Program-made: the position numbers and the translations under genes | Part shown: positions 659 to 49,246 of the stretch, in pieces | Layout: every line of letters begins with the position of its first letter | Position numbering within the stretch: the stretch's first letter is position 1 | The notes under the pieces: generated by a model | The model's database searches: none | What the model saw: the letters and a program-made list of their open reading frames with translations, nothing else | What the model was told of the DNA's origin: nothing | Assembly: GCA_034413595.1 (NCBI GenBank) | Contig: DAOUMC010000018.1 | Coordinates: forward strand, 57,079-121,078 | Direction of reading: 5' to 3' | Origin: Dehalococcoidales bacterium | GTDB taxonomy: Bacteria > Chloroflexota > Dehalococcoidia > Dehalococcoidales > JAUWZL01 | Length of the DNA: 64,000 bases

Positions 659-1609
659 ATGACGTTTGAAATTCCCAAGATACCTTATAGCGGCAAAATC
701 AGAGAAGTGACTCTGGGTAAAGGGGATAAAGCGGTGACCGTAGGCGGCGAGTCCTGCTATCCCTTCCACCTTTTTGAGGGTGGTATGCCCAGACTACCCA
801 GAATAGCCATGGAAGTCTATGACACACCACCGGGTGACTGGCCCGAGGCCGCCCTTGAACCCTTCTCGGAGGTAACCGATGACCCGGTCGCCTGGGCCAG
901 GAAATGTATAGATGACTTCGGGGCAGAGATGATCTGCCTGCAGTTGTCCAGCACCGACCCCAACGGGCTTGACCGGGGGGCCGATGAAGCCGCCGAAGTG
1001 GTCAAAAAAGTAGCTGATGCTATTACCGCCCCCCTGATTGTCTGGGGGACGGCCAACCACGACAAAGACACCGAGGTGCTCAAGAAAGTGTGTGAGGTCT
1101 GTCAGGGGAAGAGCCTGATAGTAGGCCCGGTTGAGGAAGGGGACTACAAGAAGATAGCCGCCTCAGCCCTAGGCTATAACCACATGGTAATCGCCTCCAG
1201 CCCGATAGACATCAACCTGGCCAAGCAACTCAACATTCTTCTGGGCAATCTCGGCATCCCCGACAGCCAGCTCATCATGGACCCCACGGTCAGCAGCATA
1301 GGTTATGGCATTGAGTACTGCTACTCGGTGATGGAGAGGATAAGAATGGCCGCCCTGACCCAGCAGGATGAAAAGCTCCAGTTTCCCATCATCTGCAACA
1401 TAGCCCGGGAGGCATGGAAATCCAAGGAGGTCAAAATTCCCGCCGAGGAGGAACCCAGGCTTGGTGATAGCAAGAAAAGGGGCATACTGATGGAGGCTAT
1501 GTCGGCCATGGTCTTGCTTCTGGCCGGAGGCGACGTCATGATTATGAGGCATCCCGAGGCAATAAAGCTAGTCCGGGAAATGATAGCCGAATTGACAGCC
1601 TCAAGATAG
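659..1609 (+). CDS. acsD: Corrinoid iron-sulfur protein small subunit (AcsD/CdhD-like)
   Basis: 316 aa. The N-terminus (KIPYSGKIREVTLG...VTVGGE) and TIM-barrel-like body are typical of the CFeSP delta subunit. It sits in the ACS cluster with SD GGAGG upstream. Confidence 0.85.
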   Translation: MTFEIPKIPYSGKIREVTLGKGDKAVTVGGESCYPFHLFEGGMPRLPRIAMEVYDTPPGDWPEAALEPFSEVTDDPVAWARKCIDDFGAEMICLQLSSTDPNGLDRGADEAAEVVKKVADAITAPLIVWGTANHDKDTEVLKKVCEVCQGKSLIVGPVEEGDYKKIAASALGYNHMVIASSPIDINLAKQLNILLGNLGIPDSQLIMDPTVSSIGYGIEYCYSVMERIRMAALTQQDEKLQFPIICNIAREAWKSKEVKIPAEEEPRLGDSKKRGILMEAMSAMVLLLAGGDVMIMRHPEAIKLVREMIAELTASR

Positions 1610-1614
1610 GTCTT

Positions 1615-1643
1615 TTGACATTACACCAGTAATAAGCTAAAAT
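1615..1643 (+). promoter_or_regulatory. Sigma70-like promoter for the Fur-family gene (TTGACA-17-TAAAAT)
   Basis: TTGACA at 1615-1620, a 17-nt spacer, and TAAAAT at 1638-1643, located 24 nt upstream of the ATG at 1667. Confidence 0.55.
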
Positions 1644-1645
1644 AG

Positions 1646-1657
1646 TAATAATTATTA
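1646..1657. promoter_or_regulatory. Perfect 12-bp AT palindrome TAATAATTATTA (Fur-box-like operator candidate)
   Basis: Perfect palindrome between the -10 box and the start codon, overlapping the predicted transcription start. It resembles the NATWAT hexamer arrays of Fur-family boxes. Confidence 0.45.
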
Positions 1658-1666
1658 TTAAGATAG

Positions 1667-2044
1667 ATGAGCAGGAAAACCAGACAGAAGGAAACCATCC
1701 TCAGGATTTTGCGGGCCAACAACTGCCACCCCACCGCCGGCTGGATATATGAGCAGGTGAAGCAGGAGCTGCCCCATATCAGCCTGGGGACGGTCTACCG
1801 GGACCTTAAGGCGTTGAAACAGGCGGGCGAGATAGCGGAACTGGGCCTGGCCGGCAGGTTAGGCCGGTTTGATGGCAACAACAGAAATCACTACCATTTC
1901 CAGTGTCAAAAGTGTGGCCGTATCTTTGACATCGCTCAGCCGGTATCTACAGAACTGGATAACCAAATAGCCGGTAAAACCGGCTTTGACGTCCTCTATC
2001 ACCACCTGGAGTTTTACGGACTCTGCCTGGACTGTAAATCTTGA
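1667..2044 (+). CDS. Fur-family metalloregulator (Fur/Zur/Nur/PerR type, specificity unknown)
   Basis: 125 aa. It has a winged-helix region (LGTVYRDLKAL), HYHFQCQKCG and a C-terminal GLCLDC, i.e. two CxxC pairs typical of the Fur family. Confidence 0.85.
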   Translation: MSRKTRQKETILRILRANNCHPTAGWIYEQVKQELPHISLGTVYRDLKALKQAGEIAELGLAGRLGRFDGNNRNHYHFQCQKCGRIFDIAQPVSTELDNQIAGKTGFDVLYHHLEFYGLCLDCKS

Positions 2045-2114
2045 AGACTTTAGCCCGCTCAGCTCCCAGATAATGGGCTGAGCTTAACAATCTTATTGGT
2101 ATTGGAGTAATAGA

Positions 2115-4082
2115 ATGACCCAAGAAGGAAAGAAGAGCATTGACCCGGCCACGGTTGAAATGGTTGCCAAGGCGGCTAAAGACAAACGCAGCACCGCCTT
2201 TGAGCGAGCAGAAATGTTAAAACCATGCCCCATCGGGCTTGAGGGCAGTTGCTGCAGTATGTGCGCCATGGGACCGTGCCGGGTGCCTTTGGGTAGAGGA
2301 AAAGAGGAGACGCCGGAAGAAAAGAAACGACGAAGGGGCATCTGCGGCGCTACGGCAGAGACCATTGCCGCCCGGAATTTCGTGCGCAAGATAGCCGCCG
2401 GCTCAGCGGCTCACAGCGACCACGGGCGCCGCGTGACCCAGGCCTTTCTGGCCGTTGCCAGGGGGGAAGCACCCGGCTACGCCATCAAGGACGAACAGAA
2501 GCTTTTCCAGCTAGCCCTAGACCTGGGTGTTAATATCGGGGACCGCAGCAATAACGAGATAGCCTCTGATATCGGGGAAATCCTCATGAGCGAGTTTGGT
2601 AAACAGGAGGGAGAACTTCTCTTCTTAAAAAGGGCACCGCTAAAGCGTCAGGAACTCTGGCGCAATCTGGGTGTCGCCCCCCGGGGCATAGACCGGGAGG
2701 TCGTTGAGACCATGCACCGCACCCACATGGGCGTTGACCAGGACTACAGAAACCTGTTGCTCCAGGGGTCCAGGGCTGCCCTGGCCGACGGCTGGGGCGG
2801 CAGCATGATTGCCACCGAACTCCAGGACGTCATGTTCGGTACCCCGGCGCCAATACTCAGCCAGATAAACCTTGGTGTGCTCAAAGAAGATGAGGTCAAC
2901 CTCATCATTCACGGTCATGAGCCGCAGTTAGCCGAGATGCTGGCCGTGGTCTCTCAAGACCCGGAAATGATTGAATACGCCCGATCCAAGGGGGCCAAGG
3001 GGATCAATCTGGCCGGTATGTGCTGCACCGCCAATGAGATTTTGATGCGCCACGGTGTGCCCATCGCCGGCAATTTCCTGCAGCAGGAACTGGCCGTCGT
3101 CACCGGAGCCCTGGAAGCCATGGTTGTCGATGTCCAGTGCATCATGCAGGGGCTGGCTGACATCGCCAGCTGCTATCACACCAAGATTATCACCACCGAC
3201 TCCCGGGCCAAGATTGAGGGTGCCACTCATATGGAGTTTGATGACCTCAATGCGGCTGAATCGGCCAGGAACATAATTAAAGTGGCCATTGACAACTTCC
3301 CCAACCGGCAGAAGAATGTCTACATACCGCCGCAGAAAACCGACCTCATCGCCGGCTTCAGCCACGAGACCATCAACTACCTCCTGGGCGGCCTCTTCCG
3401 GGCCTCCTACCGGCCGCTCAACGACAACATCATCAACGGACGAATCAGGGGCGTGGCCGGGGTTGTCGGCTGTAACAACGCCCGGGTCACCCACGATGAC
3501 GCCCACGTGACCATGGTCAAAGAACTAATCAAGAATGACGTGCTGGTCCTCCAGACCGGCTGCGCCGCCATGGCCTGTGCCAAGGCGGGGCTGATGGTTC
3601 CGGAGGCCGCCGCCAAGTACGCCGGTGCCGGGCTGGCCTCGGTCTGTGAAGCCGTGGGTATCCCCCCGGTGTTACACCTGGGTGCCTGCGTGGACAACAG
3701 CCGCATCCTGATAGCGGCCACGGCTATGGTCAAGGACGGCGGCCTGGGTGATGACATCAGTGACCTGCCCGTCGCCGGAGCCGCCCCAGAGTGGATGAGC
3801 GAGAAGGCGCTGGCTATCGGCCAGTACTTCGTCAGCTCCGGTGTCTTCACCGTCTTCGGAGCCACCTGGCCCACCCTGGGCAGCGAAAAGGTGACCAACC
3901 TGTTATTTAAGGACTTTGAGAAGACGTATGGCGGTATGTGGGCTTTTGAACCCGACCCTCTGAAGGCGGCCCAACTCATGATTAGCCACATCGACAAAAA
4001 GCGCAAGGCCCTGGGTATTGATAAAGCCAGAGAAAGAGTGCTCTATGACATGGCGATGAGACGGGAGCTGGAAGCGGTCTAG
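2115..4082 (+). CDS. cooS: Ni-dependent carbon monoxide dehydrogenase catalytic subunit (CooS/AcsA)
   Basis: 655 aa. The N-terminal Cys cluster (CPIGLEGSCCSMCAMGPCRV) and the overall sequence are typical of anaerobic CODH. Confidence 0.95.
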   Translation: MTQEGKKSIDPATVEMVAKAAKDKRSTAFERAEMLKPCPIGLEGSCCSMCAMGPCRVPLGRGKEETPEEKKRRRGICGATAETIAARNFVRKIAAGSAAHSDHGRRVTQAFLAVARGEAPGYAIKDEQKLFQLALDLGVNIGDRSNNEIASDIGEILMSEFGKQEGELLFLKRAPLKRQELWRNLGVAPRGIDREVVETMHRTHMGVDQDYRNLLLQGSRAALADGWGGSMIATELQDVMFGTPAPILSQINLGVLKEDEVNLIIHGHEPQLAEMLAVVSQDPEMIEYARSKGAKGINLAGMCCTANEILMRHGVPIAGNFLQQELAVVTGALEAMVVDVQCIMQGLADIASCYHTKIITTDSRAKIEGATHMEFDDLNAAESARNIIKVAIDNFPNRQKNVYIPPQKTDLIAGFSHETINYLLGGLFRASYRPLNDNIINGRIRGVAGVVGCNNARVTHDDAHVTMVKELIKNDVLVLQTGCAAMACAKAGLMVPEAAAKYAGAGLASVCEAVGIPPVLHLGACVDNSRILIAATAMVKDGGLGDDISDLPVAGAAPEWMSEKALAIGQYFVSSGVFTVFGATWPTLGSEKVTNLLFKDFEKTYGGMWAFEPDPLKAAQLMISHIDKKRKALGIDKARERVLYDMAMRRELEAV

Positions 4083-4111
4083 AAACTAAGTAAGATAGAA
4101 GGACTTTAGGA

Positions 4112-6316
4112 ATGTCAAAAATAATTGCCTCAGCAGCTATCAGGGGAGCCCACAGGATTGTGGGGCAGGCCGAAAAAAAGTGGCAGGAGGCCATGGACAG
4201 ATGGGGAGCTAAAGAGCCTGTTGGCTTCCCCAACAGCGCCTATTACCTGCCCATAATCTACGGGATTCTGGGCGTCAAAGTGGAAAAGCTGGGAGACATG
4301 GAGCAGGTGCTCGGACGGTGTAAATCACTGCTGCCACCACCGGTCAAGGAGACACATCCACTGCCCTATCTGGCACCGGCCCTTGACGCCGGCATGGCCA
4401 CCTTTTTCGCCGAGGAAATCATTGAGGCCATACGCTACCTTGAGAAACCCGACTTCTACACCAAAACAGAAGACCCGATGGATGGCAACATCTGGCTGGG
4501 GGCCGCCGATGACGTCATACTGAGGAAGAGGGGCATTGAGTTTGTGGATGGCACCGCCCCGGGCTTTGCCGCCATCCTTGGTGCCGCTCCCACCAATGAG
4601 ATAGCGGCCAGAATCGCCCAGGAACTGCAGCAGAAGAACCTCTATATCTTTATGTGCGCCGAGAATGATGGCAAAAGGTTCTCGGAGCAGCTGGTTGAGG
4701 CCGGAGTACAGATTGGCTGGCCCACCCGCCTGGTTTCCTTCGGCCCTGATGTCTCCGCCGCCGTGTTTGCCATGGGTTTTGCCAACCGGGTGGCCATGTC
4801 CTTCGGTGGTGTTGAACCCGGTGATTATCGAAAAATCCTAATCTACAACAAAGACCGAACCTTCGCCTTTGCCATGCCTCTGGGCTATGTCACAGACGAG
4901 TGGTACGCCAATGCCGCCGGAGCCATCAACTGGGGGTTCCCCACCATCGCTGATACCCCCATACCCGAGGTCTTGCCCAGCGGTATCTGCACCTACGAGC
5001 ACGTCGTCTCCAATGTGCCGCACGACAGAATAGTGTCCCGGGCGATAGAGGTGAGAGGACTCAAGGTCGCCGTCGCCGAGGTGCCGGTGCCAGTGGCCTA
5101 CGGCCCGGCCTTTGAAGGCGAGAGAGTGCGCGGCGAGGAAATATACCTTGAGTGCGGCGGTGGCAGAAGCCAGATGGTGGAGTGGGTCACCTCAAAGCGC
5201 ATGGATGAGGTGGAAGACGGCAAGATTGAGGTCATCGGGCCGGAGATAACCGACGTCCCCGCCGGCTCCAAGCTGCCCCTGGCTATAGCCGTGGAGGTCG
5301 CCGGCAGAGGAATGCAGGAGGACTACGAGCCCATCCTGGAGAGGCAAATCCACCACCTGATAAACTATGCTCAAGGGGTAATGCACATCGGCCAGAGGGA
5401 TATCGCCTGGCTAAGAGTCAGCAAATCGGCGGTGGAAAAGGGTTTCCATCTCCACCACATCGGCACCATCCTCCATGCCAAATTGCACCAGGACTTCGGC
5501 CGCATCTTTGACAAGCTTCAGGTAAAACTATACACCGAAGAAGACAAGGTAAAAGAGACTGTGGATAAAGCCAAAAAGGTATATGCCACCCGGGATACCC
5601 GCATTGAGGGTATGACCGACGAAACCACCAGCATATACTATTCCTGCACCCTGTGCCAGTCCTTTGCTCCGAGCCATGTCTGCGTCATCAGCCCGGAGAG
5701 AACCGGGCTCTGCGGCTCCTACAACTGGATGGACTGCAAGGCGGCCTACGAAATCAACCCCACCGGGCCTAACGTGCCGGTAGAAAAAGGTGAAACCATA
5801 GACGCCAAGCTGGGGCAGTGGAAAGGGGTGAACGAGTTTGTCTTCAAGGCTTCCCGGGGCAAGATAGACCATTACAACTTTTACAGCATCATAAATGACC
5901 CGATGACCACCTGCGGTTGCTGCGAGTGTATCGCCGCCATCCTGCCATTGTGCAACGGGGTAATGACGGTAAACCGGGAATACATGGGCATGACCCCCTG
6001 TGGGATGAAGTTCACCACGCTGGCCGGGACTATCGGTGGTGGCATCAGCACCCCGGGCTTTGTAGGTCACGGCAAGTATAACATCACCCAGAGGAAGTTC
6101 CTCAGTGCCGAAAACGGTATCAAGCGCCTGGTCTGGATGCCTAAAATGCTGAAGGAGGAGATTGCCCCTCGCTTTAACGCCCGGGCCAGAGAAATCGGTA
6201 TTCCCAATCTCCTGGACATGGTCGCCGATGAGACAGTGGGCGTCACCGAAGAAGAAATCCTACCCTTCCTTCAAGAAAAAGGGCACCCGGCGCTGAGTCT
6301 GGAACCATTGATGTAG
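4112..6316 (+). CDS. acsB: Acetyl-CoA synthase alpha subunit (AcsB)
   Basis: 734 aa. It carries the A-cluster Cys-Gly-Cys context (TTCGCCECI) and lies next to cooS and acsC. Confidence 0.95.
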   Translation: MSKIIASAAIRGAHRIVGQAEKKWQEAMDRWGAKEPVGFPNSAYYLPIIYGILGVKVEKLGDMEQVLGRCKSLLPPPVKETHPLPYLAPALDAGMATFFAEEIIEAIRYLEKPDFYTKTEDPMDGNIWLGAADDVILRKRGIEFVDGTAPGFAAILGAAPTNEIAARIAQELQQKNLYIFMCAENDGKRFSEQLVEAGVQIGWPTRLVSFGPDVSAAVFAMGFANRVAMSFGGVEPGDYRKILIYNKDRTFAFAMPLGYVTDEWYANAAGAINWGFPTIADTPIPEVLPSGICTYEHVVSNVPHDRIVSRAIEVRGLKVAVAEVPVPVAYGPAFEGERVRGEEIYLECGGGRSQMVEWVTSKRMDEVEDGKIEVIGPEITDVPAGSKLPLAIAVEVAGRGMQEDYEPILERQIHHLINYAQGVMHIGQRDIAWLRVSKSAVEKGFHLHHIGTILHAKLHQDFGRIFDKLQVKLYTEEDKVKETVDKAKKVYATRDTRIEGMTDETTSIYYSCTLCQSFAPSHVCVISPERTGLCGSYNWMDCKAAYEINPTGPNVPVEKGETIDAKLGQWKGVNEFVFKASRGKIDHYNFYSIINDPMTTCGCCECIAAILPLCNGVMTVNREYMGMTPCGMKFTTLAGTIGGGISTPGFVGHGKYNITQRKFLSAENGIKRLVWMPKMLKEEIAPRFNARAREIGIPNLLDMVADETVGVTEEEILPFLQEKGHPALSLEPLM

Positions 6317-6329
6317 AAAGGAGTATATA

Positions 6330-7676
6330 GTGCCGCTTACCGGAATAGAGATATTCAAGCTACTGCCCAAGACCAACTGTGGCCAGTGCGGAGTGCCTAC
6401 CTGCCTGGCTTTCGCCATGAGTCTGGCGGCGGGCAAGGCCGAGCTTGCTGCCTGCCCCTACGTCTCTGAGGAGTCCAAGGCCAAGCTGGAGGAAGCATCA
6501 GCCCCGCCTATCAGACCAGTTACTATCGGAGTCGGTGACCGGGCACTGAAAGTGGGTGGTGAGACGGTCATGTTCCGCCACGAAAAGAGGTTTGAAAATC
6601 CTCCCGGCTTTGCCATCCTTGTCAGCGATAGTATGGCTGAAACCGAGGTTGACAGTCGCCTTGACAGGTTTAATAAGCTCCAGTATGAGCGGGTGGGGCT
6701 CACCCTTCGCCCGGAACTGGTAGCCTTAAGGTGCGACTCGCAGGATGCCTCAAAGTTTGGGGCTCTGGTGACCAAAGTAAAACAGAGCAGCGACGCCAGC
6801 ATCATCCTGATGAACCAAAACCCCGAAGTCCTGGCCGCCGGGCTGGCCGTCTGCGCCGATAGAAGACCGCTACTTTACGCCGCCACCAGGGACAATCTGG
6901 AACAGGTAGCGGCACTGGCCAGGGCCAACTCCTGCCCGGTTGTTGCCCAAGCCGATAATCTAGATGAGCTCACCGAACTCACTTCCAGGCTAACCCAGTC
7001 CGGTATCAAGGACATTGTCATTGACTCCGGGGCCAGGACTCTGCGCCGGGCGTTCGAAGACCAAGTTGTAACAAGGAGGGCCGCCCTGCTCAAGAAGTTC
7101 CGCCCCCTGGGCTATCCCACCATAATTTTGGCCAACGAGATGACCGATGACCCGATGAAAGAGGCACTAATGGCGGCTATCTTTGTGGCTAAATACGGCG
7201 GAATCATCGTCCTGTCTGATTTTCAAGGAGAGAGCCTGTTCCCACTGTTGGTGCTCAGGATGAACATCTTCACCGACCCGCAGCGGCCGCTGGCCACTAC
7301 CGAGGGCATCTATGAGATTGGCAGCCCCGATGAAAACTCTCCGGTAATGGTCACTTCCAACTTTTCCCTGACCTACTTCATCGTCTCTGGCGAGGTGGAG
7401 AACAGTCGGGTTTCCAGCTACCTGCTGGTCAAGGACACCGAGGGGCTTTCGGTCATGACCGCCTGGGCCGCCGGCAAGTTCGGCGCCGACACCATCGCCC
7501 CCTTCGTCAAAAAGAGCGGCATTAGCGACAGGATTAAACACCTTAAACTGATAATCCCGGGCTATATCGCCATCGAAAGCGGCGGCCTGGAAGAAGAGCT
7601 GCCCGGCTGGGAGATTCTGGTCGGCCCCAGAGAGGGGGCTCATATCCCGGCCTATCTTAAGACACTGAAATCCTAA
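6330..7676 (+). CDS. acsC: Corrinoid iron-sulfur protein large subunit (AcsC/CdhE-like)
   Basis: 448 aa with a GTG start. The N-terminal 4Fe-4S motif is CGQCGVPTCLAFAMSLAAGKAELAACP. Confidence 0.92.
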   Translation: MPLTGIEIFKLLPKTNCGQCGVPTCLAFAMSLAAGKAELAACPYVSEESKAKLEEASAPPIRPVTIGVGDRALKVGGETVMFRHEKRFENPPGFAILVSDSMAETEVDSRLDRFNKLQYERVGLTLRPELVALRCDSQDASKFGALVTKVKQSSDASIILMNQNPEVLAAGLAVCADRRPLLYAATRDNLEQVAALARANSCPVVAQADNLDELTELTSRLTQSGIKDIVIDSGARTLRRAFEDQVVTRRAALLKKFRPLGYPTIILANEMTDDPMKEALMAAIFVAKYGGIIVLSDFQGESLFPLLVLRMNIFTDPQRPLATTEGIYEIGSPDENSPVMVTSNFSLTYFIVSGEVENSRVSSYLLVKDTEGLSVMTAWAAGKFGADTIAPFVKKSGISDRIKHLKLIIPGYIAIESGGLEEELPGWEILVGPREGAHIPAYLKTLKS

Positions 7677-7687
7677 GGAGAGGGCTT

Positions 7688-8566
7688 ATGATACTTATCG
7701 GGGAAAACATAAACGTAATGTCAAAGACCATTGGTCCGGCGCTCCGGGAGAGAAGCCCGGAGCCAATAAGGGCACTGGCTAAGGCAGAAGCCAGTGCCGG
7801 CGTTGACTATCTTGACCTTAACATCGGTCCGGCCAGAAAAGCCGGCGGCGAGCTGATGTCCTGGCTGGTCAACACCGTGCAGGAGGTCACCGGTAAGCAC
7901 TTGTCCCTGGATACGACAAACTCGGAGGCTACTGAAGCCGGACTGAAAGCCTGCAAGAGAAGGGCATTAATTAATTCCATCTCGCTTCAGCCCGAGAGGC
8001 TGGAGAGGGTGTTGCCTATGGTCAAAGAGTATAAGGCCGATTTTATCGCTCTCCTCTGGGGAGTGGAGGGCATGCCCCGGGACGCCAATGAAAGATGTAT
8101 GCACGCCGTTGACCTGGTCTATAAGGCCAACCAGCTGGGCATATCCAACGAAGACATCTGGATTGACCCTATCGTCACCCCAGTCAGCGTTGAAATCAAT
8201 CAGGTGAAAGCCTGCCTTGAGTTTATGAGCATGCTGACTGAAGTCGCACCGGGATGCAAGTCTATCGTGGGACTCTCCAACGTCTCAAATGGAACACCGG
8301 CACAGCTAAGACCCTACCTCAACCGGACATATCTGGCCATGCTGATGAAGTACAGGCTCCATTCCGCCATAGTCGATGCCTTTGACACCGAGCTGATTAG
8401 AATGGCCCGGGGCGAAATGCCGGAGATAGTCAACCTGGTGCACCGGCTGATGGACGGTGAAAAGCCCGACCCTGCCTCTTTAGGTCAGAAGGAAACGGAA
8501 TACCTTAAAACATTCCGTGTCCTTAATGGCGATGCACTCTACTCACACTCCTGGCTTGAAATATAG
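7688..8566 (+). CDS. acsE: Methyltetrahydrofolate:corrinoid/iron-sulfur protein methyltransferase (AcsE, pterin-binding)
   Basis: 292 aa. The sequence (LIGENIN ... DYLDLNIGPA ... LSNVSNG) matches the pterin-binding MeTr fold. Confidence 0.88.
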   Translation: MILIGENINVMSKTIGPALRERSPEPIRALAKAEASAGVDYLDLNIGPARKAGGELMSWLVNTVQEVTGKHLSLDTTNSEATEAGLKACKRRALINSISLQPERLERVLPMVKEYKADFIALLWGVEGMPRDANERCMHAVDLVYKANQLGISNEDIWIDPIVTPVSVEINQVKACLEFMSMLTEVAPGCKSIVGLSNVSNGTPAQLRPYLNRTYLAMLMKYRLHSAIVDAFDTELIRMARGEMPEIVNLVHRLMDGEKPDPASLGQKETEYLKTFRVLNGDALYSHSWLEI

Positions 8567-23866: not shown

Positions 23867-24427
23867 TTATTTTCCAGCATAACGCTCCCACTCGCTGTAA
23901 AGGCAGCCGCAGTACTGCTGGCGGTAGAGGTCCAGAGGCTTGGTGATATGCCGGCTGTCTGAGTAGCGCTTCCTGAGGTCGGCATAAAGGAAAGAAACGC
24001 CCTCCTCCCGAGTCAGCAGCCGGTTGCCAATCTCCAGCAGCAGCTCGTGCTTCTGGTGAGGGCTGATAAGCAGGCTGGTGGTAAAGGCGGCAAAACCCAG
24101 CCTGATAGCCGTTTCAGCCGTTTTCATCAGGCGAAGCTGAAAGCAGTAACGGCAACGGTCAGCTTCATGCCCGGTTACCTTCGCAAAGTAGTCTTTTACA
24201 TCATAGCCCTCGGCTACAATCAAAGGGAAATCCATATTTTTTGCCAGGGACTTCATTGACCCGAGGCGGCTCTGGTGCTCGGTGTAGGGGTGTATATTGG
24301 GGTTGTACCAAAAAGCAGCCACTTCATAACCCTGTTTACGCCAGTGGTTGATGGGATAGGCGGTACAGTGAGCACAGCAACAATGAACCAGAACAGAGCC
24401 GACCTTCATATCCCGACCGGTTACCAT
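23867..24427 (-). CDS. queH: Epoxyqueuosine reductase QueH (DUF208)
   Basis: Contains [20 protein letters not shown] and a C-terminal YCGC. The start could instead be ATG 24409. Confidence 0.8.
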
Positions 24428-43144: not shown

Positions 43145-43173
43145 CCTTTATTTACCCACCCCCTCCCCAGTGT

Positions 43174-43202
43174 TTACCAACCCCCGCACCCGATGCTATA
43201 AT
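43174..43202 (+). promoter_or_regulatory. Candidate promoter (TTACCA-17-TATAAT) for the TIGR00725-like gene
   Basis: It lies inside the N-terminal extension of the track ORF, which argues for the ATG 43224 start. Confidence 0.45.
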
Positions 43203-43223
43203 CTTCTTGTCAGGTCTGGCGTG

Positions 43224-43706
43224 ATGATAAACAGGAAGAAGTTCATTGCCATTATCGGCGGCTCGCAAGCCTCAGCGACTGAAATCAGGCTGGCAGAGGA
43301 GGTCGGCCGTGAGCTGGCCAGGAAGGGGGTCGCCCTGGTCTGCGGCGGGCTGGACGGAGTTATGGAAGCCGCCTGTCGCGGCGCCAGTTCCGAGGGTGGA
43401 GTGACCGTCGGTATCCTGCCAGGAGAGAATCGCCGCGAGGCCAATAAGTATGTCCAGATACCCATAGCCACCGGCATCGGCTATGCCCGGAACGTGGCCG
43501 TGGTCAAATCCGCCCAGGCAGTCATCGCCATCGGTGGCAGTTACGGGACTCTGTCTGAAATCGGCCACGCTCTACAGAGCGGAATACCGGTTATCGGGCT
43601 TAACACCTGGCAACTATCTAAGAAAGAAAAACTGAATAACTCGATTATTTCCACTCAGAACCCGCAAGAAGCGGTAGAAAAAGCCCTAGAGCTAGCCAAG
43701 GACTAA
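43224..43706 (+). CDS. TIGR00725 / LOG-like Rossmann-fold protein
   Basis: Contains KKFIAIIGGS ... LVCGGLDGVMEAACRGA ... IAIGGSYGTLSEI. Confidence 0.75.
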   Translation: MINRKKFIAIIGGSQASATEIRLAEEVGRELARKGVALVCGGLDGVMEAACRGASSEGGVTVGILPGENRREANKYVQIPIATGIGYARNVAVVKSAQAVIAIGGSYGTLSEIGHALQSGIPVIGLNTWQLSKKEKLNNSIISTQNPQEAVEKALELAKD

Positions 43707-43726: not shown

Positions 43727-45022
<1,296 letters not shown>

Positions 45023-45025
45023 AAA

Positions 45026-45862
45026 ATGAATGAGCCAGAGACCAACATCCCCAGGCAGATAAGCAAGTGGGCCTGCCACAAGCTGGAATGCTTTGGTGAC
45101 TTCGTTGAGGCTTATGCCAGAAACAACACCAAACGTTGCTACCTGGAGCTGTTTGCCGGTGGTGGCCAATACGCCTGCAAAGGCACTGACTGTGTGGTTG
45201 ATGGCCCGGAACTCAGAGCACTCAAGGCCAGGTTTTCAAGATGCATCTTTGTGGCAAAAAAGCCACCAGACGCTGAAAGCCTAAAAAGACTTTCGGCACC
45301 GCTTAACACTAACGATAGTGTTAAGATAGTGATAGGTAACTGCGTCCGGGAAAAGGTCTTTCGCCAAGCTCTTGACCTTATCCCCCGCTCGGCAGCCAGT
45401 CTTGCCTTAATTGACCCGCCAGGCTACAGCCGGCTGCGCTGGTCAACGATAAGAAAGCTGGCCAGCCACAGCCGGGACTGGAAGGGACACAAGATAGACC
45501 TGCTGGTAATCTTCCCGCTGGAAATGGCTCTACTAAAAAATCTGACCCGCCCGGACTGCGAGGCCTCCATCGACCGGCTCTACGGCAACCAGAAGTGGCA
45601 GCAGGTCAGACAGAAGAGGCTGGATGATAAAATAGGATGGGACGAAGCCAGCAAAAAGCTGATAACTTTGTTCAAAGCCGGGCTAAAGGGTCTGGGCTAC
45701 AGACATGTTGAGGACTTAAAGCCGGCCCGCTTCTCCAACCCGCTCTACTACCACATCATCTGGGCGAGCGACACCAGAAGCCAGCTAAAGGAGCTTAGCG
45801 AAATCTGGGGCAAAGAAAGATACCTGCCCTGCGAGCTGTTTCACAATGAGAAAAAAGGTTAG
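45026..45862 (+). CDS. TcmP-like / gamma-class SAM-methyltransferase-fold protein of unknown target
   Basis: 278 aa. ELFAGGG (motif I-like) is followed about 88 aa later by LIDPPGY (a DPPY-type motif IV). The N-terminal W..HK...F pattern resembles the three-Cys-motif partner protein family as I remember it. Confidence 0.5.
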   Translation: MNEPETNIPRQISKWACHKLECFGDFVEAYARNNTKRCYLELFAGGGQYACKGTDCVVDGPELRALKARFSRCIFVAKKPPDAESLKRLSAPLNTNDSVKIVIGNCVREKVFRQALDLIPRSAASLALIDPPGYSRLRWSTIRKLASHSRDWKGHKIDLLVIFPLEMALLKNLTRPDCEASIDRLYGNQKWQQVRQKRLDDKIGWDEASKKLITLFKAGLKGLGYRHVEDLKPARFSNPLYYHIIWASDTRSQLKELSEIWGKERYLPCELFHNEKKG

Positions 45863-45867
45863 GCCTA

Positions 45868-46893
45868 ATGACTAAAATCGGCATCACCACCACTGTCCCC
45901 ATAGAGGTCTTGCTGGCCGCCGGTTACCAGCCGGTTGACCTGAACAATGTTTTCATTTCTGATCCCAATCCGGAGAGGCTGGTGGCTATCGCCGAGAGGG
46001 ACGGCTTTCCCTTAAACTGCTGTAGCTGGATAAAGGGAATATATGGAGTGTGTATGGAGTCTGGAATTGACACCGTTCTGTGCGTCACCACCGGCGACTG
46101 CTCCAATACCATAATGCTTATGGAGGTCTTAAAGCTCAGAGGGCTCAAGGCCATACCCTTCGCCTACCCCGACCAGCCAGATGCCATAAAAATGCAGCAG
46201 GCTCTTGAAGTACTTGCCCAAAGTCTGGGCACTACCCTGGAAATAGCTGAAAGGATTAGAGAAGAGCTAAAGCCATGCCGCCAACTGGCGCACACCCTTG
46301 ACCGGCTTACCTGGCAGGAGAGGCTGGTAAGTGGTTTCGAGAACCACTTCTGGCTGGTATCAACCTCTGACTTCAACCAGAACCACCACGAATACTCCAG
46401 CCAGCTACAGGAGTTGGTAACCAGTTGCTGCCAGCGTTCACCCTACCCGGAAGACATGCTCCGGCTGGGCTACATCGGGGTGCCTTCAGTCTACGGAAGA
46501 GACCTCTACCCGTTTTTGGAGAGGGACGGGGTCAGGGTGGTCTTTAATGAGATTCAGCGCCAGTTCACCATGCCCCGGCCAGGAGACTCACTGGCTGAGC
46601 AGTACACCAGTTACACCTACCCGTACTCAATATACCACAGATTGGATGACATTCTAACCGAAATCGGGAGACGCCAGGTCGACGGCATCATCCACTATGT
46701 CCAGGCTTTCTGCCACCGGGGCATCGGGGATATCGTCTTCCGGGAAAGGTTAAGACTGCCCATCCTCACCCTTGAAGGCAACGATGACTTCTTCCTGAAC
46801 CCACACACAAGGACAAGGGTTGAAGCCTTTGTTGATATGCTCAGGCGCAGCATGAAAAGTCCAAAATACGCAAAGTCAGCACTCAAAAAATAA
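45868..46893 (+). CDS. 2-hydroxyacyl-CoA dehydratase (HgdB/BcrC/BadD) family protein, orphan subunit
   Basis: 341 aa. Overall similarity to the dehydratase D-component family, with conserved Cys residues (NCCSW, TTGDCSN, AFCHRG). No activator ATPase is adjacent. Confidence 0.6.
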   Translation: MTKIGITTTVPIEVLLAAGYQPVDLNNVFISDPNPERLVAIAERDGFPLNCCSWIKGIYGVCMESGIDTVLCVTTGDCSNTIMLMEVLKLRGLKAIPFAYPDQPDAIKMQQALEVLAQSLGTTLEIAERIREELKPCRQLAHTLDRLTWQERLVSGFENHFWLVSTSDFNQNHHEYSSQLQELVTSCCQRSPYPEDMLRLGYIGVPSVYGRDLYPFLERDGVRVVFNEIQRQFTMPRPGDSLAEQYTSYTYPYSIYHRLDDILTEIGRRQVDGIIHYVQAFCHRGIGDIVFRERLRLPILTLEGNDDFFLNPHTRTRVEAFVDMLRRSMKSPKYAKSALKK

Positions 46894-46910: not shown

Positions 46911-47924
46911 ATGGTAACCAGAATCGGAATCAACGGATTTGGCCGAATAGGCCGGCTAACCCTGAGGACCATCAACCGTTACCATGCCGGTGAACTTGAG
47001 GTGGTGGCCGTCAATGACCTGACCGACGCCAGAACCAATGCCCACCTGCTGAAGTGGGACAGCACCTACGGAGCCTATCCCGGCACCATAGCCGCCAGCG
47101 ATGACGCCCTCACCGTTGACGGCAAAAAGATAAAGGTCTTTGCCGAGCGTGAGCCGGCCAGTATACCATGGTCAGAGATGGGGGTTGAGATAGTGATAGA
47201 GTCAACCGGAAAGTTCACCGATGCCACCAAGGCCGCCGCCCACCGGCAGGGCGGCGCCAAAAAGGTTGTTATCTCGGCCCCGGCCAAGAACGAAGATGTA
47301 ACCATCGTCCTGGGCGTCAACGAAGACCGCTACCGGCCGGACAGGCACCACATCATATCCAACGCCTCCTGCACCACCAATGGTCTGGCCCCGGTAGTCA
47401 AGGTGTTGCACCAGAGCTTCGGCATAAGAAAGGGACTAATGACCACCATACACGCCTATACCAACGACCAGAGGCTGCAGGACACGTTCCATAGAGACCT
47501 GCGACGGGCACGGGCGGCGGCAGAGAACCTGGTGCCCACAACCACCGGCGCCGCCTACGCCATAGGCCGGGTCATACCTGAACTTGGCGGCAGGCTCCAC
47601 GGCATAGCCCTCAGGGCACCGCTGGCCACGGTCTCCATCGTAGACCTGGTCGCCGAGCTGGATAAAGAGGTCACCGTAGAACAGGTGAACCAGGCTTTCA
47701 AACAGGCCGCTGAAGGGGGGCTGACGGGAATCCTGGAGTACTGCACCGAGCCGCTGGTCAGCTCTGACTTTAAGGGCAGTTCGTCAAGTGCCATTTTTGA
47801 TGCCCTTAGTACTATAGTTATCGGCAGCAATCTGGTAAAGGTACTTGCCTGGTATGATAATGAGTGGGGCTACTGCTGCCGTTTGGCCGACCTTACCGCC
47901 TTCATCGCCCAAAAGGGTCTATGA
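46911..47924 (+). CDS. gap: Glyceraldehyde-3-phosphate dehydrogenase, type I
   Basis: Contains INGFGRIGR and the SNASCTTN active site. Confidence 0.98.
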   Translation: MVTRIGINGFGRIGRLTLRTINRYHAGELEVVAVNDLTDARTNAHLLKWDSTYGAYPGTIAASDDALTVDGKKIKVFAEREPASIPWSEMGVEIVIESTGKFTDATKAAAHRQGGAKKVVISAPAKNEDVTIVLGVNEDRYRPDRHHIISNASCTTNGLAPVVKVLHQSFGIRKGLMTTIHAYTNDQRLQDTFHRDLRRARAAAENLVPTTTGAAYAIGRVIPELGGRLHGIALRAPLATVSIVDLVAELDKEVTVEQVNQAFKQAAEGGLTGILEYCTEPLVSSDFKGSSSSAIFDALSTIVIGSNLVKVLAWYDNEWGYCCRLADLTAFIAQKGL

Positions 47925-47940: not shown

Positions 47941-47970
47941 TTGACATCAGCCAAAAGGTATAGTTAAAAT
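47941..47970 (+). promoter_or_regulatory. Promoter of the CetZ-like gene (TTGACA-18-TAAAAT)
   Basis: TTGACA at 47941-47946 and TAAAAT at 47965-47970. A short hairpin (CACAC/GTGTG) and SD GGGAGG follow. Confidence 0.55.
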
Positions 47971-49210: not shown

Positions 49211-49246
49211 AAAAAAGTCCTCCTCCTTTTAGAGGAGGACTTTTTT
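49211..49246 (+). terminator. Intrinsic (bidirectional-looking) terminator after the CetZ-like gene
   Basis: AAAAAA-GTCCTCCTC-cttta-GAGGAGGAC-TTTTTT; the stem is 9 bp. Confidence 0.85.

Follow-up and report, generated by a model that had tools for sequence, protein, structure and literature searches.

The DNA analyzed here is a 64-kb stretch from a Dehalococcoidales bacterium (the window, meaning that full stretch). It carries two open reading frames (ORFs), here named ORF1 and ORF2, tightly packed between the gene for enolase (eno) and the gene for type I glyceraldehyde-3-phosphate dehydrogenase (GAPDH; gap). An earlier interpretation made from the letters alone, called here the sequence-only reading, had taken them for a two-gene unit captured by a glycolytic operon. 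Its description of the layout, with products of 278 and 341 amino acids (aa) and gaps of 3, 5 and 17 nt between eno and gap, was exact. The four genes are arranged as follows:

43736-45022 (stop codon included), plus strand: eno, enolase (Enolase_C 417 bits, Enolase_N 180 bits).
45026-45862, plus strand: ORF1, 278 aa, ATG start, 3 nt past eno; TcmP-subfamily, Dehalococcoidia-specific protein.
45868-46893, plus strand: ORF2, 341 aa, ATG start, 5 nt past ORF1; solitary HGD-D (HgdB/HadC-like) protein.
46911-47924, plus strand: gap, type I GAPDH, 17 nt past ORF2, with a strong AAGGAGG ribosome-binding site upstream.

Intact orthologues of ORF1 and/or ORF2 were found in 139 related loci, and both are therefore genuine genes and not chance ORFs. 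Homologues of ORF1 number in the hundreds at 57-78% identity, and ORF2 has several thousand HGD-D homologues, the best 120 of which share 72-82% identity with it; in both sets those with an organism name belong to Dehalococcoidia, Dehalococcoidales or Chloroflexota. The order pth-SLOG/TIGR00725-eno-ORF1-ORF2-gap-CetZ-like tubulin-dnaX is shared by a complete Dehalococcoidia genome of 1.53 Mb and three long metagenome contigs, with ybaB and recR after dnaX in both of the compared loci reaching that far. A species-level scan (one genome each) gave 55 loci carrying ORF1, labelled Dehalococcoidia, Dehalococcoidales, Dehalococcoidaceae or Chloroflexota with one exception ('uncultured delta proteobacterium'), and ORF1 sits between eno and gap wherever these flanks are present. 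The second sample consisted of 80 metagenome loci recovered through ORF2, 58 of which carry both eno and gap; ORF2 lies between the two in all 58, and it can be absent in loci recovered through ORF1. On the 5' side of eno, most related loci that reach far enough carry the SLOG gene. Likewise, a tubulin-like gene follows gap in most Dehalococcoidia loci that are long enough, often with a second copy near (L002, L010, L012, L015 and L085; related loci are designated by L numbers).

Co-divergence was evaluated with pairwise protein distances from the 61 loci that hold all four genes. The distance correlations were 0.84 for ORF1-eno, 0.88 for ORF1-gap, 0.89 for ORF2-gap, 0.92 for ORF1-ORF2 and 0.84 for eno-gap, and the mean pairwise identities were 78.0% for eno, 77.3% for gap, 74.6% for ORF2 and 62.8% for ORF1, the fastest-evolving of the four. 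The distances of ORF1 and ORF2 thus follow the eno and gap distances no less closely than these two follow each other, indicating vertical inheritance rather than capture: both are old, class-level genes of the Dehalococcoidia under purifying selection. The G+C content of each is 52.7%, versus 58% for eno and gap, which had been read as a hint of acquisition. This drop is real but small (z ~ -1.1; the 4th and 5th lowest values among 51 window genes), and the G+C content at third codon positions (GC3) is ordinary for both (z -0.5 and -0.1). Recent horizontal acquisition was rejected in view of the conserved synteny, the co-divergence with eno and gap and the normal GC3, and the proposal of a captured module is not supported, as the same arrangement spans class-level diversity.

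The states of the eno-gap interval were counted in loci holding both flanking genes. ORF1 and ORF2 occur together in 66 loci and ORF2 on its own in 26, while the remaining states include a third optional occupant, a gene of ~330 aa with a metallo-beta-lactamase (MBL) fold (Lactamase_B 132 bits) located between eno and ORF1 or ORF2: MBL with ORF2 (five loci), MBL with ORF1 and ORF2 (four) and MBL with ORF1 (two), besides ORF1 only (two). These states group by clade in the GAPDH tree. ORF1 was missing in 31 of the 58 loci recovered through ORF2, and in about half of the 58 ORF2 comes straight after eno, the interval then being compact (~1.1 kb). Conversely, the sample of 48 loci obtained by way of ORF1 includes six without ORF2 (L008, L043, L046, L052, L056 and L057). 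The additional genes of the interval are located as follows:

L043, 6979-7968: MBL-fold gene; also found in L044, L046, L052, L055, L059, L071, L103, L106, L112, L116, L118, L125 and L142.
L047, 8875-10041; L048, 2236-3405; L020, 2680-3255; L028, 8831-9622; L036, 8872-9435: insertions at the ORF1-ORF2 junction.
L008, 8926-9345: QueF-family gene (PF14489, 101 bits), which takes the usual place of ORF2 between ORF1 and gap in one Dehalococcoidales metagenome-assembled genome (MAG).

The five junction insertions are unrelated ORFs placed exactly between ORF1 and ORF2, two of them encoding homologous 388-aa proteins. None had a significant match in Pfam, with only sub-threshold ones for L020, and their position makes the junction look like a hot spot for insertions. 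Within the window, a 186-aa ORF at 23867-24427 on the minus strand, adjoining a RuvB-like gene, has an HCCCAHC motif and resembles the epoxyqueuosine reductase QueH (DUF208) by eye only. A queuosine link between this ORF, 21 kb away, and the QueF gene of L008 was considered and, as a single occurrence, treated as a coincidence.

Since ORF1, ORF2 and the MBL gene are present or absent independently, the eno-gap interval is a variable slot inside a rigid gene string, with ORF2 nearly constant and ORF1 in roughly half of the lineages. An obligate ORF1-ORF2 pair was rejected in view of the six observed slot states, and the two-gene unit of the sequence-only reading comes apart into eno-ORF2-gap, eno-ORF1-gap and MBL-containing versions. 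A looser form of that idea would make ORF1 and ORF2 one functional unit inserted in the glycolytic operon, a methyltransferase for nucleic acids or proteins with an Fe-S partner, like TcmP with its radical S-adenosylmethionine (SAM) enzyme. The two genes lie very close together (5 nt between them in the window, an overlap of 4 nt in L001), ORF2 comes after ORF1 in ~91% of the loci recovered through ORF1, their distance correlation is the highest of the gene pairs, and canonical TcmP does pair with an Fe-S (radical-SAM) enzyme. We nevertheless consider such a unit unlikely, given the loci that lack one or the other gene, the five with unrelated genes between them and the lack of any relationship between HGD-D proteins and the radical-SAM partners; an insertion in particular is at odds with vertical inheritance and normal GC3. 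The reading preferred here, to which a probability of roughly 0.6 is given, is that ORF1 and ORF2 are separate lineage-specific core genes of the Dehalococcoidia, located in a variable slot of the string pth-SLOG-eno-[MBL]-[ORF1]-[ORF2]-gap-tubulin-dnaX-ybaB-recR, where brackets mark the optional occupants.

In hidden Markov model (HMM) searches, ORF1 matched the NCBIfam model for TcmP (TIGR04474) with 95.6 bits against a cut-off of 53, residues 15-260 aligning with positions 2-258 of the 263 in the model; the resemblance to TcmP already noticed by eye was thereby borne out. No match to ORF1 was obtained in Pfam at E<=1, among PDB sequences at E<=10 or in PHROGs. The AlphaFold2 model of ORF1 is of good quality, with a predicted local distance difference test (pLDDT) score of 85 and a predicted template modelling (pTM) score of 0.85, and shows the strand-helix pattern of class I methyltransferases, in agreement with the SAM-binding type of fold that had been expected. 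A Foldseek search of the PDB with this model gave 104 matches at E<=1e-3; all 50 of the best listed were methyltransferases or methyltransferase-fold proteins with E ~1e-4, including E. coli RlmJ and RsmD, and a fold search of the viral structure library BFVD returned mostly generic methyltransferases. Judged by its profile match and predicted structure, ORF1 belongs to the TcmP family and has the fold of class I SAM methyltransferases.

A search of 1.8 billion cluster representatives recovered 1619 TcmP-type clusters, among which the Dehalococcoidia ORF1 clade comprises ~13 full-length representatives (50% identity) scoring >170 bits, the rest scoring 80-120 bits. Alignment of both groups revealed the family motifs W..KL, YxDLFAGxG, GSPL.AL, LDPxG, W.TI..LA, ELLI.FP..MA..R and PLY.LIFASD; ORF1 has W..KL, (D/E)xFAGxG, DPxG, W.TI..LA, FP..MA..R and Y.hI.ASD in common with TcmP. 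Comparison of the TcmP profile with RlmJ by hhalign (probability 72.6%, E 3e-5) paired motif I, GSPL and DPxG of TcmP with YLDTHAGAG, PGSPLIA and LIDPPYE of RlmJ, the patterns in common being YxDxxAGxG, GSPL.A and (L/I)DPx. At the level of structure, RlmJ (6qe0) had a TM-score of 0.49 to ORF1, the best query-normalised value among the top 50, although it was equalled by 3axs (0.47-0.49) and RlmJ ranked 22nd by E-value. The two proteins are of similar size and share the class I methyltransferase fold, and a lysine 22 residues before the acidic residue of motif I is common to both (K19 in ORF1, K18 in RlmJ). K18 and D164 of RlmJ are reportedly catalytic. ORF1 differs from RlmJ in lacking the helical subdomain (a 35-residue gap in the alignment), in having DPPGY for DPPY and in its extra cysteines, and the likeness is limited, as the hhalign probability is only 72.6% and no Pfam or NCBIfam model of RlmJ was matched.

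ORF1 likewise had no match to the N6_N4_Mtase, RsmD/Cons_hypoth95 and MethyltransfD12 models, and 47 TcmP members gave isolated weak matches only to the same set of methyltransferase models (e.g., Cons_hypoth95 with E 0.16 in one of them). The best description of TcmP is a minimal RlmJ-like protein with DPxG, not DPPY, as its family motif. The peptides ELFAGGG and LIDPPGY, on which a DPPY methyltransferase had been proposed, are present (residues 41-47 and 128-134), with the second 87 residues past the first where about 88 had been estimated. ORF1 reads D-P-P-G-Y, however, and lacks the contiguous (D/N)PP(Y/F/W) tetrapeptide; DPPGY is derived within the clade from the family DPxG, and the DPPY assignment is not sustained. 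Residue counts, based on ~60 sequences of the ORF1 clade and 35 of general TcmP, distinguish the following elements of ORF1:

45074-45091, plus strand: C17-H-K19-L-E-C22; K19 is invariant in the family, C17 and C22 are clade-specific.
45146-45166, plus strand: motif I, E41-L-F-A-G-G-G47, the SAM-binding glycine loop, intact in the window copy.
45176-45193, plus strand: C51-K-G-T-D-C56, two clade-specific cysteines on a beta-hairpin straight after motif I.
45413-45427, plus strand: D130-P-P-G-Y134, the family DPxG with a clade-specific aromatic residue; pairs with DPPYE of RlmJ.
45557-45559, plus strand: C178, in 60/60 clade members and absent in general TcmP.
45830-45832, plus strand: C269 in the conserved RYLPCE tail, in 56/58 clade members.

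K19 and D130 are conserved in 35/35 general TcmP sequences. The other cysteines, equally lacking in general TcmP, are also nearly constant in the clade (C17 in 59/59, C22 in 56/59, C51 in 58/60 and C56 in 57/60), as is Y134 (58/60), where the general family has a non-aromatic residue. The acidic residue of motif I is E in the ORF1 clade versus an invariant D in TcmP, and the glycine loop is kept less strictly (G45 in 41/60 clade members versus 32/35 TcmP sequences; G47 in 50/60 versus 34/35). ORF1 is a basic protein with an isoelectric point of 9.4 (orthologue median 9.2). Judging from its residues, the window copy appears to keep everything needed for SAM-dependent transfer, and methyl transfer by ORF1 in this genome can be proposed tentatively, at somewhat less than even odds.

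The genomic context of ORF1 differs from that of other TcmP proteins. On plasmids, tcmP adjoins a gene annotated as 'phage Gp37/Gp68 family' (Leisingera, Deinococcus and Burkholderia) or 'radical SAM protein' (Nostoc), and Abi, BREX and transposon genes are found in its surroundings; DUF5131 (Gp37/Gp68) has been assigned to the radical-SAM superfamily (PMC9477430). The clade closest to that of ORF1, an outgroup likewise present in Dehalococcoidia MAGs, is paired with an SPL-family radical-SAM gene, located directly after lexA in two loci and in a prophage, between capsid and portal genes, in two others:

L150, 3198-5718, and L151; L146 and L148, ~5100-6830: second TcmP clade (P0258 family) with its SPL-family gene.

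In contrast, ORF1 lies in a chromosomal housekeeping string and is vertically inherited, not in a plasmid, prophage or defence island, and it has its own residues (the six cysteines C17, C22, C51, C56, C178 and C269, Y134 and the E of motif I). Searches with tblastn detected no Gp37/Gp68 partner in the window and 59 Dehalococcoidia loci, and no SPL-like radical-SAM partner in the window and 139 Dehalococcoidia loci. A canonical TcmP system was therefore rejected, the radical-SAM partner having been sought and not found, and from the absence of such genes in the window and the searched loci we infer that ORF1 is a domesticated TcmP without its defining partner. Weak similarity to the PADLOC candidate defence protein PDC-M41A was also found, and in the literature TcmP appears as an annotation only, beside the Hna defence gene and in rhizobial prophages.

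These defence and prophage associations of its relatives are among the reasons to ask whether ORF1 is a catalytically dead remnant of such a TcmP, either with a non-enzymatic role (nucleic-acid binding, regulation) or slowly decaying. The relaxed glycine loop, with motif I wholly lost in deep members of the clade, the loss of ORF1 from about half of the ORF2-bearing lineages and its rate of evolution, the fastest of the four genes, would be in keeping with this. On the other hand, ORF1 frames are intact in 59/59 loci (four cut by a contig end), with >50 invariant positions including K19, P131, G133, PLEMALL and the cysteines, and the window copy has a full motif I and D130. A dead remnant is consequently held to be quite improbable, more so than the functional unit with ORF2 discussed above.

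ORF2 matched the Pfam family HGD-D (PF06050) with 97.7 bits against a cut-off of 28.4, residues 8-325 covering positions 2-342 of the 342 in the model, and its assignment to the HgdB/BcrC/BadD family with several conserved cysteines was correct. The top 11 PDB matches in a Foldseek search were all HadB/HadC, DCCP, BzdNO or MbdON, and DCCP and HadC were also matched in profile searches. HadC (PDB 3o3m_B) was the best structural match, with E 2e-11 and a TM-score of 0.59. The best PDB sequence matches were double-cubane proteins, over the C-terminal 70 residues, and E. coli YjiM could be aligned end to end at ~24% identity. Six cysteines of ORF2 are invariant (C51, C52, C72, C78, C187 and C282), five of which fall in these elements:

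46018-46023, plus strand: C51-C52, both invariant; C52 pairs with C78 of YjiM in the double-cubane seven-cysteine motif.
46081-46101, plus strand: C72...C78 (CVTTGDC), both invariant; C78 is two residues off C108 of YjiM.
46711-46713, plus strand: C282, invariant; pairs with the C-terminal cysteine of DCCP (FCQ), C335 of YjiM and the FCD of HadC.

The double-cubane motif, CX19CX18-19CX29CX166-170CX32-34CX32C, is carried by E. coli YjiM, and its cysteines include the FCQ cysteine at the C-terminus of DCCP and C78 and C335 of YjiM (PMC7317905). In the alignment with YjiM, ORF2 has counterparts for only three of the seven cysteines, namely C52, C78 (with the two-residue offset) and C282, and its score with the double-cubane model NF040772 was 31.9 bits, against a cut-off of 350. 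A double-cubane protein was thus rejected because of the HMM score and the cysteine pattern. The cysteines of ORF2 would instead fit the single three-cysteine [4Fe-4S] pattern of dehydratase/reductase subunits.

Like HadC and HgdB, ORF2 keeps the cysteine of the C-terminal FC motif. Unlike HadC/HgdB and BzdO/MbdO, it is 30-45 residues shorter, has extra invariant cysteines (C51, C72 and C187) and has neither an alpha-type paralogue nor an HgdC-type activator nearby. Neither the window nor the surroundings of ORF2 in the 139 loci yielded a second HGD-D gene, and no activator of the HgdC, BcrAD_BadFG or YjiL type was detected by a motif scan of the window and a tblastn search with E. coli YjiL over 1.27 Mb (the window and the 139 loci), confirming that partner subunit and activator are lacking nearby. 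ORF2 resembles DCCP of C. hydrogenoformans (PDB 6eno/7yyl) and YjiM in being a single HGD-D-type polypeptide, which could be a homodimer; DCCP and YjiM are, however, paired with reductase genes (DCCP-R and YjiL), and ORF2 has no adjacent reductase gene.

The slot could be read on one predicted transcript with its flanks. The elements on which this prediction is based, and the neighbouring genes, are:

43173-43202, plus strand: promoter-like site TTTACC-18-TATAAT, with TG, just 5' of the SLOG gene; consensus match only.
43221-43706, plus strand: SLOG/TIGR00725-family (LOG-like) gene (LDcluster4 153 bits; TIGR00725 140.8 bits, cut-off 106.9).
47941-47970, plus strand: promoter-like site TTGACA-18-TAAAAT, matching 11/12 positions, between gap and the tubulin-like gene; the best of the region.
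47984/48008-49180, plus strand: gene of the tubulin/FtsZ superfamily with an archaeal-type CetZ C-terminal domain (Pfam Tubulin 116 bits, CetZ_C 62 bits).
49221-49239, plus strand: terminator-like hairpin 3' of the tubulin gene.

A consensus scan of the plus strand found no terminator-like site in the intergenic gaps from the first promoter to the end of gap, the sole match of that interval being inside eno (44102-44116). With promoter-like sites confined to positions 5' of the SLOG gene and 3' of gap, and without an intergenic terminator-like site, co-transcription of SLOG-eno-ORF1-ORF2-gap, as previously suggested for eno and gap, is plausible as far as consensus scans of promoters and terminators can tell; the site at 43173-43202 is the likely start of this transcript and that at 47941-47970 probably marks the end of the eno-gap unit. 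The tubulin-like gene scored only 75 bits with the NCBIfam model of FtsZ, against a cut-off of 295. Toward the start of the window (659-8566, plus strand), clustered large ORFs resemble the carbon monoxide dehydrogenase/acetyl-CoA synthase and corrinoid Fe-S/methyltransferase genes of the Wood-Ljungdahl pathway, from N-terminal sequences only.

The predicted shared transcript would fit the alternative that the slot genes, ORF2 above all and possibly MBL, serve lower glycolysis/gluconeogenesis or a side-reaction of it, for example on triose phosphate-derived 2-hydroxyacyl or lactoyl thioesters; their location between eno and gap would then be a sign of their function. In all of the 58 loci eno and gap flank ORF2, which is conserved like them (74.6% versus 77-78%), the HGD-D family works on 2-hydroxyacyl-CoA substrates (PMC7317905), and the third occupant of the slot has the MBL hydrolase fold of glyoxalase II. 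Synteny is a weak guide to function here, however, since the string also holds the functionally unrelated pth, dnaX, ybaB, recR and ligA; in addition, 1.27 Mb of flanking DNA yielded no CoA-transferase, CoA-ligase or activator, ORF2 is missing from the locus in six of 48 ORF1-recovered loci, and literature searches gave no support. A glycolytic role is accordingly rated as improbable, to about the same degree as a functional ORF1-ORF2 unit.

If ORF1 and ORF2 are, as preferred here, separate core genes, their history and functions could be outlined as follows. ORF1 would descend from the mobile TcmP family, whose RlmJ-like methyltransferase-fold members would normally act beside a radical-SAM enzyme in mobile elements or defence islands, and would have been domesticated, losing its radical-SAM neighbour and gaining five or six conserved cysteines. 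It appears to keep the RlmJ-type catalytic pair (K19 and D130), with a SAM loop that seems intact in this genome, and as a basic protein it is predicted to bind nucleic acid. The cysteines are most likely ligands of a metal (Zn or Fe-S) close to the cofactor/substrate pocket, and the best guess is a housekeeping enzyme that modifies or recognises bases of RNA or DNA. ORF2 would probably bind one three-cysteine [4Fe-4S] cluster through C52, C72 or C78, and C282, and is predicted to be a homodimeric low-potential redox or dehydratase-type enzyme of the ketyl-radical or low-potential reductase family, with its electron donor or activator presumably encoded elsewhere.

A bolder version, which we consider very unlikely and the least probable of the readings presented, is that the partner-less ORF1 clade built its own Fe-S centre, ligated by C17, C22, C51, C56, C178 and C269, in the SAM/substrate pocket of a Rossmann methyltransferase fold and became a self-contained, non-canonical radical-type or redox-dependent modifier of nucleic acids (cf. 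Dph2), with ORF2, where present, as the supplier of low-potential electrons. If true, this would be a new class-specific housekeeping modification of RNA or DNA.

Several observations weigh against the reading of two separate core genes as outlined. In the loci selected through ORF1 that carry both eno and gap, ORF2 follows in 42 of 46, and this, with the correlation of 0.92, means that ORF1 and ORF2 may be functionally linked where both occur. Sampling was done through ORF1 or ORF2, and the counts apply to the loci so recovered, loci with neither gene and copies elsewhere in a genome falling outside them. Regarding ORF1, G45 is replaced by S, R, K, H or C in 19/60 clade members, G47 is altered in 10/60, and deep members are without any GxG; with the loop degenerate in many orthologues, the conserved role of ORF1 may not need SAM. 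The predicted structure of ORF2 is of low confidence (pLDDT 64), and the cluster ligands are assigned by alignment only. Finally, no functional work on TcmP, on Gp37/Gp68 or on HGD-D proteins of Dehalococcoidia turned up in literature searches. The sequence-only reading had counted as evidence against itself the finding of both genes as conserved parts of the operon with a known function: the first part of this holds in relatives, but neither gene has a known function.

Members of the Dehalococcoidia occur abundantly in marine and subsurface sediments and are relevant to bioremediation, and they have small genomes in which many of the core genes lack a functional assignment. The main gain of this analysis is corrective, in that the locus turns out to be no horizontally acquired module and not to encode a canonical DPPY methyltransferase; ORF1 and ORF2 are variants of known families in an ordinary setting of conserved synteny. 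More attractive as leads are ORF2, as a very conserved HgdB-like protein that stands alone, and the TcmP clade with many cysteines and no partner. Radical enzymes of the family to which the solitary ORF2 belongs normally depend on a second subunit and on activation by an ATP-driven protein, and ORF2 is likely an important enzyme, since it is conserved about like enolase and GAPDH and lies between their genes in every ORF2-recovered locus spanning both. ORF1, in turn, would show how a methyltransferase-fold protein of the defence-island or prophage type can be domesticated to a core gene, having shed its radical-SAM partner and gained a probable metal site, and the natural lineages with and without ORF1 provide a ready comparison for finding its target.

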